DNA from: a virus
Lineage: Duplodnaviria; Heunggongvirae; Uroviricota; Caudoviricetes
Length of the DNA: 4,962 bases
Reading direction: 5' to 3' (one strand)
IMG/VR virus record: IMGVR_UViG_2778261301_000005
The position numbers and the translations under genes are program-made. The notes beneath the pieces are model-generated. The model saw nothing but the letters and a program-made list of their open reading frames with translations. It had not been told where the DNA came from and searched no databases. Within the stretch, counting starts at the first letter, position 1. Each line of letters opens with the position of its first letter. Below, piece by piece: positions 1-4,962 of the stretch.

Positions 1-310
1 TATCAGAAGTTAGATTGTAATAATTGGTATAAGCTGAAATTGACTTCTGGCATGCTTCAAGAAATTCCTGTGGATTCATTCCTAGTCTTGCTTGCTCTGT
101 GGTCAGAAAACGCTGTAAGAACTCATCTCCGCCAGGCATTTTTGTTGATTCTTGAAATGTTGCCATTTGTTTGATTGTGCCGCACATGCCAGCAAATTTC
201 GAAGTTATCATGAGTTCTTGCAGGCCTTTAAGATCGCCATTATCTGATTTTGGTTTGGCGAAAACTATTGTAGAGAAGAACAATATTAACAAAATAGCGA
301 TACGTTTCAT
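1..310 (-). CDS. Hypothetical secreted protein, 5' portion only (start at 308-310 on minus strand, ORF runs off the left edge, 103 codons visible)
   Basis: Manual minus-strand translation from the ATG (reverse complement of 308-310) gives MKRIAILLILFFSTIVFAKPKSDNGDLKGLQELMITSKFAGMCGTIKQMATFQESTKMPGGDEFLQRFLTTEQARLGMNPQEFLEACQKSISAYTNYYNLTSD with no stop down to position 1. The N-terminus has the shape of a Sec signal peptide (KR, hydrophobic core, VFA-K candidate cleavage site, no lipobox Cys). The ATG overlaps the mnt stop codon (ATGA overlap). An open frame of 310 nt is notable in AT-rich DNA. Absent from the ORF track, presumably because its stop lies outside the window. Confidence 0.55.
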   Translation of the reverse strand, partial: MKRIAILLILFFSTIVFAKPKSDNGDLKGLQELMITSKFAGMCGTIKQMATFQESTKMPGGDEFLQRFLTTEQARLGMNPQEFLEACQKSISAYTNYYNLTSD

Positions 311-558
311 TTTTCACTGTTGCCATGCATAGATTTTAATTTCTCAACCTCATGCTCAAGCTCTATCAACCGCGATGCTATAGTTGCAAGATCTAGTGCT
401 TGAATATGTTTATTTTTTTCAGTCCATGCCTCAAGTGCTGCTACCATCTCAGCATTTAATGAACGAGAATTAGCCTCAGCCAGTTCAATAAGACGTTCCT
501 TTATCTCTACAGGAAGCCTCAGATTCACTTGAGGGTTTTTGTACTTACGATCAGACAT
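307..558 (-). CDS. mnt: Mnt-like ribbon-helix-helix transcriptional repressor (83 aa)
   Basis: ORF-track protein MSDRKYKNPQVNLRLPVEIKERLIELAEANSRSLNAEMVAALEAW... Its N-terminal motif NLRLPVEIKERL...AEANSRSLNAEM closely parallels P22 Mnt (NFRMPMEVREKL...AEANGRSMNSEL, recalled from memory); the C-terminal half is coiled-coil-like, as in the Mnt tetramerisation domain. Same length as P22 Mnt (83 aa), and divergent from an Arc-like gene as in P22 immI. A possible SD (AGGA) lies about 7 nt upstream of the ATG on the minus strand. Confidence 0.85.
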   Translation of the reverse strand: MSDRKYKNPQVNLRLPVEIKERLIELAEANSRSLNAEMVAALEAWTEKNKHIQALDLATIASRLIELEHEVEKLKSMHGNSEK

Positions 559-586
559 CGGCGCATCCTGAATAATTTTTTACCAC

Positions 587-615
587 AGGATATGTAGGTA
601 TCTATTGACTATCAA
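587..615 (-). promoter_or_regulatory. Candidate sigma70 promoter for mnt (minus strand: -35 TTGATA at 610-615, 17-bp spacer, -10 TATCCT at 587-592)
   Basis: Hexamers read by eye on the reverse complement. The -35 is a 5/6 match to TTGACA and the -10 is a weak 4/6 match to TATAAT. The position fits leftward transcription of mnt. Not verified experimentally. Confidence 0.35.
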
Positions 616-625
616 TGCGTACCTA
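595..625. promoter_or_regulatory. Candidate operator: imperfect 31-bp palindrome TAGGTATCTATTGACTATCAATGCGTACCTA centred on 610, with a perfect inner palindrome ATTGA-cta-TCAAT (604-616)
   Basis: Checked by reverse-complementing: the outer 6-bp arms TAGGTA/TACCTA and the inner 5-bp arms ATTGA/TCAAT pair exactly, 11 of 15 pairs overall. The two candidate -35 hexamers (TTGACT on plus, TTGATA on minus) sit back to back inside it. It lies between two genes for RHH repressors. Confidence 0.5.
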
Positions 626-633
626 AATACTAT
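605..633 (+). promoter_or_regulatory. Candidate sigma70 promoter for the arc operon (-35 TTGACT at 605-610, 17-bp spacer, -10 TACTAT at 628-633); Pant-like
   Basis: The -35 is a 5/6 match to TTGACA and the -10 a 4/6 match to TATAAT, with an ideal 17-bp spacer. The predicted start near 640 is about 24 nt upstream of the arc SD (GGAGGA at 654-659). The arrangement mirrors the overlapping divergent Pant/Pmnt promoters of P22 immI. Confidence 0.45.
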
Positions 634-644
634 GTATGCGTACC
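615..644. repeat. Two exact copies of the 9-bp direct repeat ATGCGTACC (615-623 and 636-644), 21 bp centre to centre
   Basis: Read directly from the sequence. The copies flank the candidate arc -10 element, and the 21-bp spacing (two helical turns) puts them on the same DNA face. Candidate binding sites for an RHH repressor (Arc-like or Mnt-like). Confidence 0.45.
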
Positions 645-663
645 ACATACAGCGGAGGATGCA

Positions 664-804
664 ATGAAGGTAAAAACACTGCGTATGCCAGAGAAGCTAG
701 AAAAAATTCTTGAAGAAAAAGCAAAGGAAGAGTGTCGCTCATTCAGCGCAGAAGTAATTAAACGGGTGCTTGACAGCCTGAAGAGAGAGGGGATTACGGT
801 ATGA
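664..804 (+). CDS. arc: Arc-like ribbon-helix-helix repressor (46 aa); not in the supplied ORF track
   Basis: Manual translation: [46 protein letters not shown]. The motif LRMPEKLEKILEEKAKEECRSFSAEVIKRVLDSLKREG aligns position by position with P22 Arc (LRWPREVLDLVRKVAEENGRSVNSEIYQRVMESFKKEG, recalled from memory). A strong SD (GGAGGA at 654-659) lies 4 nt before the ATG at 664. The stop TGA (802-804) overlaps the next ATG (801-803). Confidence 0.85.
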   Translation: MKVKTLRMPEKLEKILEEKAKEECRSFSAEVIKRVLDSLKREGITV

Positions 805-1070
805 AGGTGTCATTGCTTGATCGTTCTTTACAATTTTTGTCTGGCGCAATCATTGTAGTTTGCTTGCTCGTGATTTTTACATCGTTAATCAATATGTATC
901 AATCAGGGGAACGATTGACAAAGACGATAGAGGAAAAAAAATCAGTCTCAAATTACGAAGTATCACATGCACATAACGATTTAGTAGAAAGCCTTGACCG
1001 TATTAACAAGAGGCTTGACGAGACAAATATGCTACTTAAGCAAATTCAAAATGAAGTGGAAAAACGTTGA
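801..1070 (+). CDS. Small hypothetical membrane protein (89 aa): one predicted N-terminal transmembrane helix, then a charged coiled-coil-like tail
   Basis: ORF-track protein; hydrophobic stretch [20 protein letters not shown] (about aa 14-33) followed by a K/E-rich heptad-like tail ([24 protein letters not shown]). Start overlaps the arc stop and its own stop overlaps a TTG at 1067, suggesting an operon. No family recognised. Confidence 0.55.
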
Positions 1071-1132
1071 AGCCCCAACTGCTGGAACAGTCAGGGCTTC
1101 GGTATCAACAAAACTTACGAGGTATTATTGAT

Positions 1133-2023
1133 ATGTCAAGCTTAGCAAAGTCAACTGTAAATTGCACTAATAGCATCATCATTTCTGACGTCAAGATTCA
1201 TATGGATTCAGAGGGGCGTTACTCGCTTAATGACCTCCATGTAGCGTCTGGGAAGGAGGAAAAACATCAGCCAGCTTTCTTCATGCGTAGAAATGAAACT
1301 ATTGAATTGATTAATGAAATTTTTAATTCTGCGGATATGCAGAATAAGAATCCCGTCCTTTCTAAGAAAGGTCGATATGGTGGAACCTACGTGTGCAAGG
1401 AGCTTGTTTACTCCTACGCCATGTGGATTAGCGCAGCCTTTGCGCTGAAGGTTATCCGTGCATATGACGCAATGGTTACTGCCACACAAGAGAGGAAGGC
1501 TATTGGAGGTAAAACTTCAGTAGCTGAACGCACACCGCTACGCGATGCAGTAAACATGCTGGTAGGAAAGAAAGGACTTCGCTATGACGATGCATACAAT
1601 ATGGTTCATCAGCGTTTTGGTATTGACAGCATTGATGAACTTTCAATTGAACAAATCCCGCTTGCCGTAGAGTACATCCACAGGGTAGTGCTTGAAGGCG
1701 AGTTCATCGGCAAACAAGAGAAGAAAACCAACGAGCTTTCTGCAAAAGAAGCAAACAGCCTTGTATGGTTATGGGATTATGCCAACCGCTCTCAGGCATT
1801 ATTCCGCGAATTGTATCCGGCGCTAAAACAAATTCAATCGAACTATTCCGGAAGATGCTACGACTACGGTCATGAGTTCTCGTATATTATCGGAATGGCG
1901 AGAGATGTTTTAATCAATCACACACGAGATGTTGATATTAATGAGCCAGACGGACCAACGAATCTTTCCGCATGGATGAGACTTAAGAATAAAGAATTAC
2001 CTCCTTCAGTACATAACTACTGA
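1133..2023 (+). CDS. KilA-N domain protein with a C-terminal region of unknown family; candidate antirepressor-like or Kil-like protein in the position ant occupies in P22
   Basis: ORF-track frame 1067..2023. The N-terminal region carries the KilA-N signature: [14 protein letters not shown] ... [35 protein letters not shown]. Preferred start is ATG 1133 (in frame, GAGG at 1119-1122 upstream); the alternative is TTG 1067, which overlaps the upstream stop. The C-terminal ~170 aa has no family I can recognise. Confidence 0.75.
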
Positions 2024-2123: not shown

Positions 2124-4364
2124 ATGACAGATTCAATAAATGCCAATGTTGTAGTGAGTATGCCTTCGCAACTCTTCACTATGGCTCGTTCTTTTAAAGC
2201 CGTAGCCAATGGCAAAATTTATATCGGTAAAATTGACACTGACCCGGTAAATCCTGAAAACCAGATTCAGGTTTATGTGGAGAACGAAGACGGCTCTCAC
2301 GTTCCTGTTTCTCAACCAATCATCATTAACGCTGCTGGCTACCCTGTATATAACGGACAGATTGCTAAGTTCGTTACTGTACAAGGGCATTCTATGGCTG
2401 TTTATGATGCGTACGGTGCTCAGCAGTTCTATTTTTCGAATGTGCTGAAGTATGACCCTGACCAACTCAGGCAAGATCTTGCATCTCAAGGAGGTGTTAA
2501 TCTGGTAAACGGAGCTATCTCACAGGAAGATCTTGTTTTGCAGTCGATCACAAAAATTCCAAGTTATGATAATTCTAACGTAGTCCAGGCGTGGCGCGAT
2601 AGTGTTGCGACCTACGGGTATGTTTACTTCTCTAATCATTCAAAAAATCAGATGGTGTACACCGTACCGTCTACAGCTGCTAACGCTTCTTTCCTTGCGA
2701 ACAGTAAAGTAATCATTGATAAAAATGTCACCCTGAGATTCGACAGTGATCTGTACTCACTGTTTAAATCGTTGCAGTACGAGGGGGATGGTACGTTTGA
2801 ATTTACGCACCTGAACTTTAAAGCAACCGGTGGAGAAGTGGATTATCTGGCTAAGCAGGCTATCCTCAACCGAAACCCTATTCGCATGAAGCGAGTGGAA
2901 TGGTCAGATTGTAAAGTTTATTCCATAAATGGTGACACGTTCTTCTATGAAGGTGAAGTCACCATATCCTCAGATAGCGCAGCTATCTTCCCCTTAACTA
3001 CTGACCGTACAACAGGCCTGTTCGCACCAATAGATATTGGAGAGCATATTTCTGCACATATTCGCATGGAATCTCAGGCCGCCTCAGAAGTTGGGATTGT
3101 TTTGCGATGCTCTGGAGGTTGGATGATGTTCTATGGGGCACCAGGTGCTACACAGTGGTCTTATAGACAGAAACCAATTGGTGGTCCAGTAGCAGAAGGA
3201 ACTCCATTCCCGCTGCCAGGAGGTTTACTGTCGTACGCCCCGGGCAAAGCAACCGTTGGCGTATCACTGCAAGGTAAAAACTGGGCGCAGATAACGATGA
3301 ATGGCGTTGGGATACGTTTGCCCTTTGATACTGCTGATGTAGGGGATGTATACGAAGTTGGGTTTGTTGCACTGACCACGGCATCTGGAGGTTCTGCGCG
3401 TGTAACTGGATTATGCAGCTACACCTCTGATAATGGAGTGCACGGTAAGCCTCCACTTAATATCCTTATCCACGGTGATAGTACAGCTGAGGATTTCATT
3501 TCCGCGTTCAGCTCGTACATTCCGCAATTAATGGATGGAGCGAACGGCCACCGTTCACATAGCATTGTAAACAAGGCAGTTGCCGGACAGACAATGAGGC
3601 AACAGTTAGATCTCCTGAAGGCTCAGGGGCCGGGTGATGCTTACATCGTTATTATGGTTGCCGGAACTAACGAAGGGCAGGCAAACCAAAACGGCGATTA
3701 TATGGCGTCATTGATAGATGAGTTTGTCTTATATTGCAATGGCCTTGGTCGTATCCCTGTTTGGGTTGAGCCGTGGATGTGGTATAGCCAGTCATTTATT
3801 GGAGGGGCTGGCCAGCCATCTTCTAACTACGACGGTGTCGCAGAGTTGCGAGAAGCTGGTAAACGCCAGATGATGAAATATGGCAATAACGTCATTTGTG
3901 TAACAACAACTCACCAGCTCCCGGCCCCATATCCAGAGTATTTCAATACGCAATACGACCCACTTCTGCGTGATGACATTCACCAAAGCCAGTTAGGGTA
4001 TCGTCTGTATGCGGAAATTATCTGCTCTGCCATTATCGACTGGTGGTCGCGTGTTGATTACACGCCAAGAGCAGCTGTTCAATGGTGGGCTGGAACAAAC
4101 GTAACAGTACAGGAACCGTCAAGTTTAACTGCCAATTCAATTAATATTAAACTGGCAGCCACTTCATTTGCGAATGGCAATACTGTTCTAACGCTTCCGA
4201 GATGGTGCAGACCAAAAGTAACCAAAAATGTCCCTGTACCGTTCACTGCTGATGACGTTTCATTTGGCATGGCAATGGCTACCATTAATGCTTCAACAGG
4301 ACAAATATCGATTGAAGGGTCCACAACTACATCTCCAACGTTCTACATAGATGCGACATGGTAG
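2124..4364 (+). CDS. Tailspike protein (746 aa): P22 gp9-type N-terminal head-binding domain fused to a receptor-binding body containing an SGNH/GDSL-type hydrolase (predicted polysaccharide esterase/deacetylase) domain
   Basis: The N-terminal ~115 aa ([12 protein letters not shown]...[38 protein letters not shown]...[17 protein letters not shown]...NVLKYDPDQ) is near-identical in pattern to the P22 tailspike head-binding domain (recalled). SGNH motifs in canonical order: block [14 protein letters not shown] (G451-D452-S453, nt 3474-3482), block II VAGQT (G488), block III GTNE (G514-x-N516, nt 3663-3674), block [17 protein letters not shown] (D617-x-x-H620, nt 3972-3983). SD GGAG at 2112-2115. 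Confidence 0.9.
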
Positions 4365-4569: not shown

Positions 4570-4583
4570 TCACTCCACCTTTT
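4562..4583 (+). terminator. Hairpin AAGGTGG-gtcact-CCACCTT followed by TTTT, overlapping the integrase stop codon; possible plus-strand terminator or RNA-processing structure
   Basis: Stem 4562-4568 pairs with 4575-4581, and T's run from 4580 to 4583. The T-run is short and partly inside the stem, so terminator strength is uncertain. Confidence 0.3.
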
Positions 4584-4962
4584 CATCAAGCCAATCAGCC
4601 CACCACTGCATCATTTCTCTGCGCTTATCCAGATACTGAGCATGGTTGTAAATCCCGCGCACAGATCCGCCGTTGGCATGTGCCAGTTGCACTTCAATGG
4701 CGTCAGCAGGCCATTCGTGCTCGTTCATAATTGTGCTGAATTCATGCCTGAATCCGTGACCGCTTTCCAGACCCTCATAGCCGATTTGTTTGATCACAAG
4801 CAATACCGCGTTCTCGCAGATTGGCTTTTTCTTATCGTTGCGCCCGGCAAAAACAAACTCTGATACTGGTTTGGTGATTGAGCTTTGAACCGCCCCGGGA
4901 ATCCTGGAGACTAAACTTCCTGAGAAAGAGGTAAACAGGATGACTAAAAATACTCGTTTTTC
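4570..4962 (-). CDS. int: Tyrosine recombinase / phage integrase, C-terminal part only (5' end beyond the right edge); P4-type C-terminal signature
   Basis: Minus-strand frame open from 4962 down to stop TGA (reverse complement of 4570-4572). The C-terminus GHGFRHEFSTIMNEHEWPADAIEVQLAHANGGSVRGIYNHAQYLDKRREMMQWWADWLDEKVE has the H-x-x-R box, a conserved Tyr region and the MMQWWADYLD-like tail typical of P4-family integrases (recalled). The ORF track lists only the TTG-initiated tail 4570..4803; I extended the frame by hand to the window edge. Confidence 0.8.
   Translation of the reverse strand, partial: EKRVFLVILFTSFSGSLVSRIPGAVQSSITKPVSEFVFAGRNDKKKPICENAVLLVIKQIGYEGLESGHGFRHEFSTIMNEHEWPADAIEVQLAHANGGSVRGIYNHAQYLDKRREMMQWWADWLDEKVE

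Follow-up and report, generated by a model that had tools for sequence, protein, structure and literature searches.

The window, as we call the whole 4962-bp stretch of DNA analysed here, comes from a P22-like prophage, of which it is the immI ("ant moron") end, and the 105-bp gap between its divergent mnt-like and arc-like genes is probably the promoter-operator core of an immI-type antirepressor switch. On comparison with related loci, a 58-bp core inside this gap is under strong purifying selection. This core very likely holds the operators of the Mnt-like and Arc-like repressors. The operators are unlike those of P22, and the arrangement combines two predicted back-to-back promoters, three phased copies of a short repeat and a dyad over the rightward start site (Table 1).

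An earlier note, made from the sequence alone, had placed the gap between two RHH repressor genes, and the Pfam and Rfam matches now identify a complete immI-type module around it. Several defining features of P22-type immI are present: divergent mnt and arc RHH genes, ant downstream in the direction of arc, the sar antisense RNA, and an adjacent tailspike gene. The integrase match at the far end is cut at ~4885 by an IS3-family element, and in relatives a gene for a DNA-transfer (ejection) protein lies upstream. In the mnt-like protein, a coiled-coil-like tail at the C-terminus follows the RHH domain. The best PDB match of this protein is P22 Mnt (1mnt, E 3.4e-5), and its DNA-facing strand, KNPQVNLRLP, corresponds to that of the Arc F10V mutant (PDB 1baz/1bdv). 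The arc-like protein has an RHH domain without the N-terminal arm, so that the strand MKVKTLRMP opens the protein directly; its gene carries a Shine-Dalgarno sequence, GGAGG, at 654-658. When it is aligned to P22 Arc, its best solved relative, T5 falls opposite N11 and R7 opposite R13. PDB entry 9pio, from a ClpXP substrate study, has no bearing on the module.

Table 1. Features of the window and of its promoter-operator region, in order of position
Feature	Position	Strand	Remarks
Small ORF	2-310	-	secreted-looking
mnt-like gene	307-558	-	83 aa; Pfam Arc PF03869, E 2.7e-10; PHROG 795
mnt-arc gap	559-663		105 bp
Inverted repeat ATCCTG / CAGGAT	565-591	-	arms 565-570 and 586-591; base-pairing between the leftward -10 region and AGGA (569-566), the mnt ribosome-binding site
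Leftward (Pmnt-like) -10, TATCCT	592-587	-	predicted; 17-bp spacer after the -35
Conserved promoter-operator core	594-651		58 bp
Repeat copy A, GTAGGTATC	594-602	+	degenerate third copy, in the leftward spacer; consensus xT[AG][GC][GA]TA[TC]C
Palindrome ATTGA-cta-TCAAT	604-616		perfect 5-3-5, arms 604-608 and 612-616; contains both -35 hexamers; candidate site over both promoters
Rightward (Pant-like) -35, TTGACT	605-610	+	predicted
Leftward (Pmnt-like) -35, TTGATA	615-610	-	predicted
Repeat copy B, ATGCGTACC	615-623	+	in the rightward spacer
Rightward (Pant-like) -10, TACTAT	628-633	+	predicted; 17-bp spacer after the -35
Dyad TGTATG-cgtacca-CATACA	633-651		over the rightward start site; contains copy C; absent from the earlier note
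Repeat copy C, ATGCGTACC	636-644	+	over the rightward start, inside the dyad
arc-like gene	664-804	+	46 aa; Pfam Arc PF03869, E 3.7e-8
89-aa ORF	801-1070	+	between arc and sar
sar antisense RNA	1065-1131	-	over the ant ribosome-binding site; Rfam RF00262, 62.5 bits (gathering score 43), E 1.3e-11
ant antirepressor gene	1133-2023	+	switch target; Pfam KilA-N, E 4e-19; P22_AR_C, E 6e-30
Tailspike gene	2124-4364		P22 head-binding domain
Integrase 3' remnant	4570-4803		listed ORF; the DNA match to integrase continues to ~4885

A scan with the Mnt protein, limited to one genome per species, retrieved 10 loci, three of which belong to other types. The seven loci of this module (49-59% Mnt identity) come from Arsenophonus, Phlomobacter, two Xenorhabdus, two Photorhabdus and Chimaeribacter. 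One of them (L011) is cut by a mobile element, and the six intact gaps were compared with the window. In these six loci, from 5 other genera, 49-57 of the 58 core bases are identical to the window (84-98%), whereas the DNA encoding the Mnt RHH domain is 58-64% identical, with third codon positions down to 28-40%; the Mnt strand K[NH]PQVNLRLP is unchanged. Because third positions are near saturation, recent horizontal spread cannot explain the conservation of the core. Across 48 unique sequences, conservation sets in abruptly at 594 and stops at 651.

Other genomes carry the same region. The gap is identical in E. coli MS14384; the core has one change in phage CUS-3 (A600G) and none in E. coli NCCP15648, each with a few changes outside the core, and Salmonella phage SEN22 also carries the core. 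Among 5426 complete E. coli genomes, 146 (~2.7%) carry the gap elements, always whole. No recombinant in which the dyad is parted from either repressor or from the -35 block was seen in 77 viral contigs with the dyad and these 146 E. coli genomes, nor in the module-bearing loci among 15-mer matches, nor among Arc homologues. Since no natural recombinant separates the elements, the assignment of each protein to its site is drawn from position and analogy.

The two promoters had been proposed in the earlier note, and the hexamers of both are indeed where it placed them, with the -35 elements overlapping within the palindrome ATTGA-cta-TCAAT and sharing base 610. Between positions 250 and 1200, a promoter scan gave 6 promoter-like sites for 2.9 +/- 1.6 expected. 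As such sites are not enriched beyond chance, the hexamers alone prove nothing and the support comes from conservation. For both predicted promoters the position is kept across genera. In the leftward -10, positions 592, 591 and 587 are each unchanged in 47 of the 48 unique relatives while 588-590 vary, a TAnnnT pattern characteristic of sigma-70 -10 elements. At the same position as in the window, relatives have TACTAT or TAATAT as their rightward -10. Hence, both promoters as drawn are predicted, with high probability, to be real, their activity being judged from this conservation.

The shared palindrome and the 31-bp imperfect palindrome surrounding it (595-625, 11 of 14 arm positions matching) are both present as the earlier note described, and a repeat search extends the outer one to 18-nt arms (591-608 and 612-629) with 78% complementarity. 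Chance was assessed with 5000 dinucleotide-preserving shuffles of the 105-bp gap. A perfect palindrome with 5-bp arms is unremarkable alone (p~0.55), and the 11/14 and 14/18 palindromes are moderately unusual (p~0.023 and p~0.003, respectively). In loci retrieved without reference to that block, 603-616 is nearly invariant: 612 is T or G, and a G is found at 604 in one locus (L090). This near-invariance, which extends to hexamer positions that usually drift in promoters, hints at an extra constraint. The only common change in the block, T612G, is never compensated at 608, which means that selection on the inner palindrome may act purely on the -35 hexamers. The outer arms TAGGTA/TACCTA are probably a by-product of the near-palindromic GGTAYC found inside each copy of the repeat. 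The nesting of the two palindromes stands as an observation, and the direct repeats fit the data better than the outer inverted arms do, because in loci L019 and L028 the region of copy A reads ATGCGTACCTA, identical to 615-625 of the window.

The two exact 9-bp copies reported to flank the arc -10 were confirmed, 21 bp apart from start to start. In the shuffled gaps, an exact direct repeat of at least 9 bp arises with p~0.017 and one at exactly 21 bp with p~0.0004. With flanking bases, the identity of copies B and C extends to 12 of 14 positions (610-623 against 631-644). The count of two has to be revised: a third, weaker copy (A) lies 21 bp to the left of copy B. Copy A reads GTGCGTACC in Photorhabdus and becomes ATGCGTACC in L019 and L028. 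A GTAYC motif that the earlier note did not mention recurs with a 21-bp phase at 598, 619 and 640. Copies B and C tolerate different changes, G617A in B and G640A in C; within copy B, 618-623 is near-invariant and 617 varies between G and A. The B-C spacing is 20 bp in L019, L028, L044 and L088 and 22 bp in L114. Elsewhere in the window, a search for further copies of the 9-mer gave just one match with 1 mismatch, inside the tailspike gene and within chance.

Over the rightward start site, copy C forms part of a dyad whose 17-bp core, GTATGC-GTACC-ACATAC, occupies 634-650. The dyad pattern has 1 match in the window for 0.04 expected, and it is conserved whether loci are collected by their Mnt protein or by the -35 block. 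Most natural variants retain GTAT-N9-ATAC, and variants with A645G have perfect 7-3-7 arms; several symmetry centres are possible (638.5, 640 and 642). The right arm, 645-651, belongs neither to a promoter nor to a repeat and is as conserved as the rest, which argues for a dyad operator at the start site. No RNA-structure signal was detected at 633-651 (fold z 0.15), and we therefore read the dyad as a DNA site. The minus strand (651-633) was flagged as terminator-like by a scan, and an RNA hairpin or terminator at this place was rejected on the same z-score, on the 3 G-C pairs of the stem and on its weak T tail. No LexA box (CTGT-N8-ACAG, up to one mismatch) is present in 559-663; the spacing of the dyad is TGT-N9-ACA.

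These elements lead us to the following model. Of two back-to-back sigma-70 promoters, the rightward one would transcribe arc, the 89-aa ORF and ant, and the leftward one mnt. The Mnt-like repressor, with its basic N-terminal arm and C-terminal oligomerisation tail, would be made from the leftward promoter in the lysogen and would bind the dyad over the rightward start, silencing ant and leaving its own promoter unblocked. After infection, the armless 46-aa Arc-like repressor would be made from the rightward transcript and would bind around 594-625, at copies A and B, at the 604-616 palindrome or at all of these, thereby covering the two -35 elements and the two spacers and shutting down both promoters. 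The sar RNA would add translational control of ant. By analogy with P22, it is likely that the Mnt-like protein acts at the start-site element, and we lean towards an action of the Arc-like protein at the -35-proximal elements (594-625). A maintenance repressor must silence ant and not itself, and only the start-site element permits this. The same assignment is favoured because a basic arm (DRKYKN) is conserved in Mnt and an RTACC centre in the dyad, while Arc is armless and the centre of the upstream palindrome is occupied by the -35 hexamers. Against it, copies B and C share 9 exact bases, which is odd if they serve different proteins, and the dyad admits more than one symmetry centre. The two-repressor switch that had been proposed, with one site over both promoters and a second set over the arc start, keeps its outline, with conserved candidate elements at both places; the details change, as the copies number three and copy C is part of a dyad.

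A partition built on the sites named in the earlier note assigns the proteins differently: an Mnt-like tetramer would bridge copies B and C, two helical turns apart on either side of the rightward -10, with the weak copy A as an autoregulatory site, and the Arc-like protein would occupy 604-616. The rarity of an exact 9-mer at 21 bp and its extension to 12 of 14 bases fit such bridging; moreover, only the Mnt-like protein has an oligomerisation tail able to span 21 bp, copy A is the least well preserved of the three, which would suit autoregulation through a site of low affinity, and 603-616 is almost invariant even where promoters usually let hexamers drift. However, this partition leaves the conserved 645-651 unexplained, copies B and C vary at different positions (617 and 640), their spacing shifts by one base pair in either direction in the five loci named above, and Mnt tails differ greatly in length and sequence while the layout of the sites is constant. 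We consider it unlikely. An interleaved arrangement, in which one protein reads the three GTAYC boxes (near-palindrome AGGTACCT) and the other reads [CG]TAT-N9-AT[AG]C dyads centred at 610 and 642, three helical turns apart, the perfect start-site dyad being filled first, appears quite improbable. In its favour, copy A of L013 and L089 holds AGGTACCT as a perfect 8-bp palindrome, and CTAT-N9-ATGC (602-618) and GTAT-N9-ATAC (634-650) have a common geometry, the former being made more symmetric by G617A. Yet the dyad pattern carries little information and could be due to chance, and C618 and C639 are invariant, unlike a symmetric AGGTACCT box.

That the repeats and palindromes are not operators at all, and owe their conservation to a terminator, to an RNA fold, to the binding of a host factor (at a LexA box, for example) or to recent horizontal spread, seems very improbable. 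Some antirepressors of other phages are controlled by LexA, and the terminator-like flag on 651-633 would point the same way. But the core stays 84-98% identical beside coding DNA whose third positions are nearly saturated, the RNA folds give z-scores of 0.15 and 0.14, the terminator-like stem has few G-C pairs and a poor T tail, and the gap is devoid of a LexA box within one mismatch.

RNA structure may matter further left, at the inverted repeat in the mnt leader. The RNA of 565-591 folds with -9.1 kcal/mol (z -2.25). Native pairings give -9.4 kcal/mol against -7.4 kcal/mol for cross-lineage ones (permutation p<0.0002, phylogeny not controlled), and the inverted repeat is absent in L012 and L014. 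A joint reading would combine interleaved operators (the three phased GTAYC boxes and two [CG]TAT-N9-AT[AG]C dyads, read differently by the two RHH repressors, possibly with an Mnt tetramer across two helical turns) with a role of the leftward -10 as an anti-Shine-Dalgarno sequence, such that mnt would be translated only from transcripts of its own promoter and not from read-through RNA; we regard this combination as doubtful.

The note had further proposed that the operators differ from those of P22 and imply a distinct specificity, and this is borne out. P22 Oarc (ATGATAGAAGCACTCTACTAT) and Omnt (GGTCCACGGTGGACC) have no match within 3 mismatches in the window. The residues of the DNA-facing strands also differ: Gln/Asn/Arg in the window Mnt (PQVNLRLP) against His6/Asn8/Arg10 in P22 Mnt, and Val/Thr/Arg in the window Arc (KVKTLRMP) against Gln9/Asn11/Arg13 in P22 Arc. 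As neither the operators nor the strand residues of P22 are found here, the window belongs to a familiar kind of switch but to a specificity class other than that of P22. Judged by sequence, this class is common to phage CUS-3 and the ~2.7% of complete E. coli genomes mentioned above.

Comparison with further immI types gives some indication of how such sites are read. Five types (P22, Emek, MS196, 611R6 and an Armatimonadia MAG) have an Arg-Asp pair in the N-terminal arm of Mnt, and their gaps hold a repeated palindromic candidate operator with a CGGT(G) centre. In P22, this element is the known Omnt; in the other four types, the CGGT(G) elements would be Mnt operators only by analogy. EC.P3 Mnt does not have the arm Arg, and CACTTTG is found instead of the CGGT(G) centre. 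A recognition code based on strand residues was tried as a predictor of sites and fails in both the window and EC.P3. RRTAG[AT]-N5 subsites suit P22 Arc and Emek Mnt, which have the Gln/Asn/Arg triad in common, yet no RRTAG[AT] or TAGA-type subsite in Arc geometry exists in the window despite the Gln/Asn/Arg triad of its Mnt. Likewise, EC.P3 Mnt has a Pro/Thr/Arg triad as in some Arc partners, but the motifs are unrelated. When operator positions were compared with the class of the Arc strand (KVKTLRMP, KPSSVRFP or EPVSVRMP), only position 630, in the -10, tracks with it, and this follows phylogeny; the N/H alternative at Mnt residue 8 has no link to positions 617 or 640.

Overall, this module adds to the classic P22 Mnt/Arc switch a second specificity class, which is widespread: it is carried by O104:H4 and UTI89-like strains as well as by several Enterobacterales genera; the established model of the switch is not overturned. 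A literature search found no experimental work on this operator class. Its 58 bp offer a compact target for studying how RHH strands read DNA, since an Mnt that carries the P22 Arc triad evidently uses a different site.

A close known system is phage CUS-3, whose "ant moron" has the same mnt allele, the same gap apart from A600G, and the same 46-aa arc, as do prophages of E. coli UTI89, O104:H4 and others. CUS-3 was described as apparently having no arc (Villafane et al. 2008, PMC2629481), and in its record the gap and arc are annotated only as "boundary sequence"; both genes are now "Arc family DNA-binding protein" in RefSeq. The present analysis corrects the published view of CUS-3-type modules as arc-less. 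CUS-3 also carries a second mnt, of the P22 type, downstream. The arc of CUS-3-type modules and such "orphan" second mnt genes suggest that prophages accumulate Mnt repressors with specificities unlike their own as a means of silencing the antirepressors of incoming phages.

With P22 itself, the window shares the gene order and its place directly before the tailspike gene, as well as a rightward -35 close to consensus and a 17-bp spacer. P22 Mnt reportedly represses Pant only and Arc both promoters, according to Susskind, Sauer and colleagues. The placement of the elements is also alike: in P22 the centre of Oarc falls 10 bp into the Pant spacer, with Omnt over the start, and in the window the GTAC centre of copy B is 10.5 bp into the rightward spacer and the dyad covers the predicted start. 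In contrast, the operator sequences are unrelated. The promoters of the window are back to back, with one shared -35 base and predicted starts ~60 bp apart, whereas in the P22 sequence, as read here, the leftward -10 abuts the rightward -35, with the starts ~48 bp apart. Other differences are that a 9-mer is common to the two start-proximal elements and has a third copy, that the Mnt strand is Gln/Asn/Arg as in P22 Arc, that Arc is armless with 46 aa, and that an 89-aa ORF lies between arc and sar.

NikR-type RHH tetramers bind half-sites GTATGA-N16-TCATAC, two helical turns apart. The likeness is that an RHH tetramer with a separate tetramerisation domain binds half-sites ~21-22 bp apart, as bridging of copies B and C would require; the half-sites of NikR are, however, inverted and not direct, and there is no homology beyond the RHH fold.

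The immI types of Salmonella phage Emek, E. coli phages EC.P3 and 611R6, the E. coli MS 196-1 prophage, Proteus and the Armatimonadia MAG have the same architecture. Their operator-like motifs recur within the spacer or the -10 of the rightward promoter, across its start site, and farther upstream, close to the leftward promoter. The motif sequences of these types differ from that of the window. In MS 196-1, for example, CACGGTGTAG occurs twice, 21 bp apart, with one more copy 36 bp upstream. Near-identical strands in the two repressors go with similar motif copies in MS 196-1 and the Armatimonadia MAG, whereas the two repressors of the window differ from each other in their strands.

Across the immI types that we compared (P22, L003; Emek, L175; an Armatimonadia MAG, L015; E. 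coli MS 196-1, L004; and the loci L173 and L174), the presence of an Arg-Asp pair in the N-terminal arm of Mnt goes with a CGGT(G) centre in the repeated palindromic candidate operator of the mnt-arc gap. The exception is EC.P3, whose Mnt is devoid of the Arg and where CACTTTG stands in place of CGGT(G). In addition, RRTAG[AT] subsites are common to Emek Mnt and P22 Arc, each with Gln/Asn/Arg. The palindrome resembling P22 Omnt is present twice in the Armatimonadia MAG, an unexpected host range.

Features of the window and of the loci compared with it
Feature	Locus	Position	Strand	Remarks
~104-aa protein gene	window	2-310	-	downstream of mnt; 4-base overlap with mnt stop
89-aa ORF	window	801-1070	+	between arc and sar/ant; overlaps arc stop
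Tailspike	window	2124-4364	+	P22 head-binding domain, residues 4-114
IntS-like integrase	window	4570-4962 region		3' remnant only; integrase homology stops ~4885
46-aa arc gene and next ORF	CUS-3 (L001)	2772-3253		unannotated; record label 'bsq2; boundary sequence'
Orphan mnt	CUS-3 (L001)	2224-2472		P22-type Mnt
Orphan mnt	E. coli MS 196-1 (L004)	1466-1717		window-type Mnt
Candidate operator palindrome	P22			AGGTCC-ACGGT-GGACCT
Candidate operator palindrome	Emek			AGTAGT-ACGGT-ACTATC
Candidate operator palindrome	Armatimonadia MAG			GGGACC-ACGGT-GGTCC
Lineage-specific pairing arms of the mnt leader, examples				CCTACTC/GAGTAGG; CTTAATCT/AGATTAAG

In the minus-strand RNA of window positions 565-591, the Shine-Dalgarno/start region of mnt is complementary to the region of the leftward -10, where the pairing arm consists of TATCCT and the spacer preceding it. 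The pairing sequences differ by lineage yet match within each (L008, L010, L077, L085 and L087 among the compared loci, and the window; kinship was ignored), and this complementarity was not found in L012 and L014. A transcript begun at the predicted leftward promoter would be missing the 5' arm, and the hairpin could thus block mnt translation solely on read-through RNA.

Upstream of 1501 in Xenorhabdus sp. PB62.4 (L011), a mobile element breaks the control region directly after CAATGCGTA. This element carries a DDE-type transposase fragment. The locus retains mnt, the predicted mnt promoter and copy A, the repeat copy in its spacer, while arc and ant were lost through the mobile element.

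Some prophages have an additional, "orphan" mnt that differs in specificity from the prophage's own mnt and lies downstream of it. The matching operator is absent near the orphan genes of CUS-3 and MS 196-1. The latter is a lambdoid prophage whose own immI type differs from that of the window, and its homology to the window ends at ~585, just short of the -10. The orphan mnt genes look as if these prophages had gathered immunity to foreign antirepressor modules. CUS-3 was described in 2008 as apparently without arc (PMC2629481); the arc gene is present there, as a tblastn match with 95.7% identity.

At the right end of the window, an IS3-family element starts at ~4885, where integrase homology stops, and its transposase begins at 4939. 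We take the sequence starting with TGAACCGCCCCGGG to be an IS629/IS1203-type end. Since the integrase is a 3' remnant cut by this element, the prophage is probably defective. No match covering more than 68% of 250-1200 was found in any complete E. coli genome of the collection; the window is therefore a mosaic, absent as such from that collection.

The tailspike is matched over its full length by PHROG 17606 (unknown function). GDS and similar motifs lie in its C-terminal part, which also gives a below-threshold match to GDSL/SGNH hydrolases (E 0.0013, 19.6 bits versus a cut-off of 32.9). The receptor-destroying domain may be of esterase type, not glycosidase type.

The ~104-aa protein has a signal-peptide-like N-terminus and belongs to PHROG 19844 (unknown function). 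The lysogen probably expresses its gene together with mnt, which makes this gene a candidate for lysogenic conversion or exclusion. The 89-aa ORF, a member of PHROG 27312 (unknown function), combines a hydrophobic N-terminal segment with a coiled-coil-like tail. An identical ORF is present in phage EC.P3. P22 and E. coli MS14384 lack it, and unrelated ORFs occupy its place in CUS-3, 611R6 and Emek.
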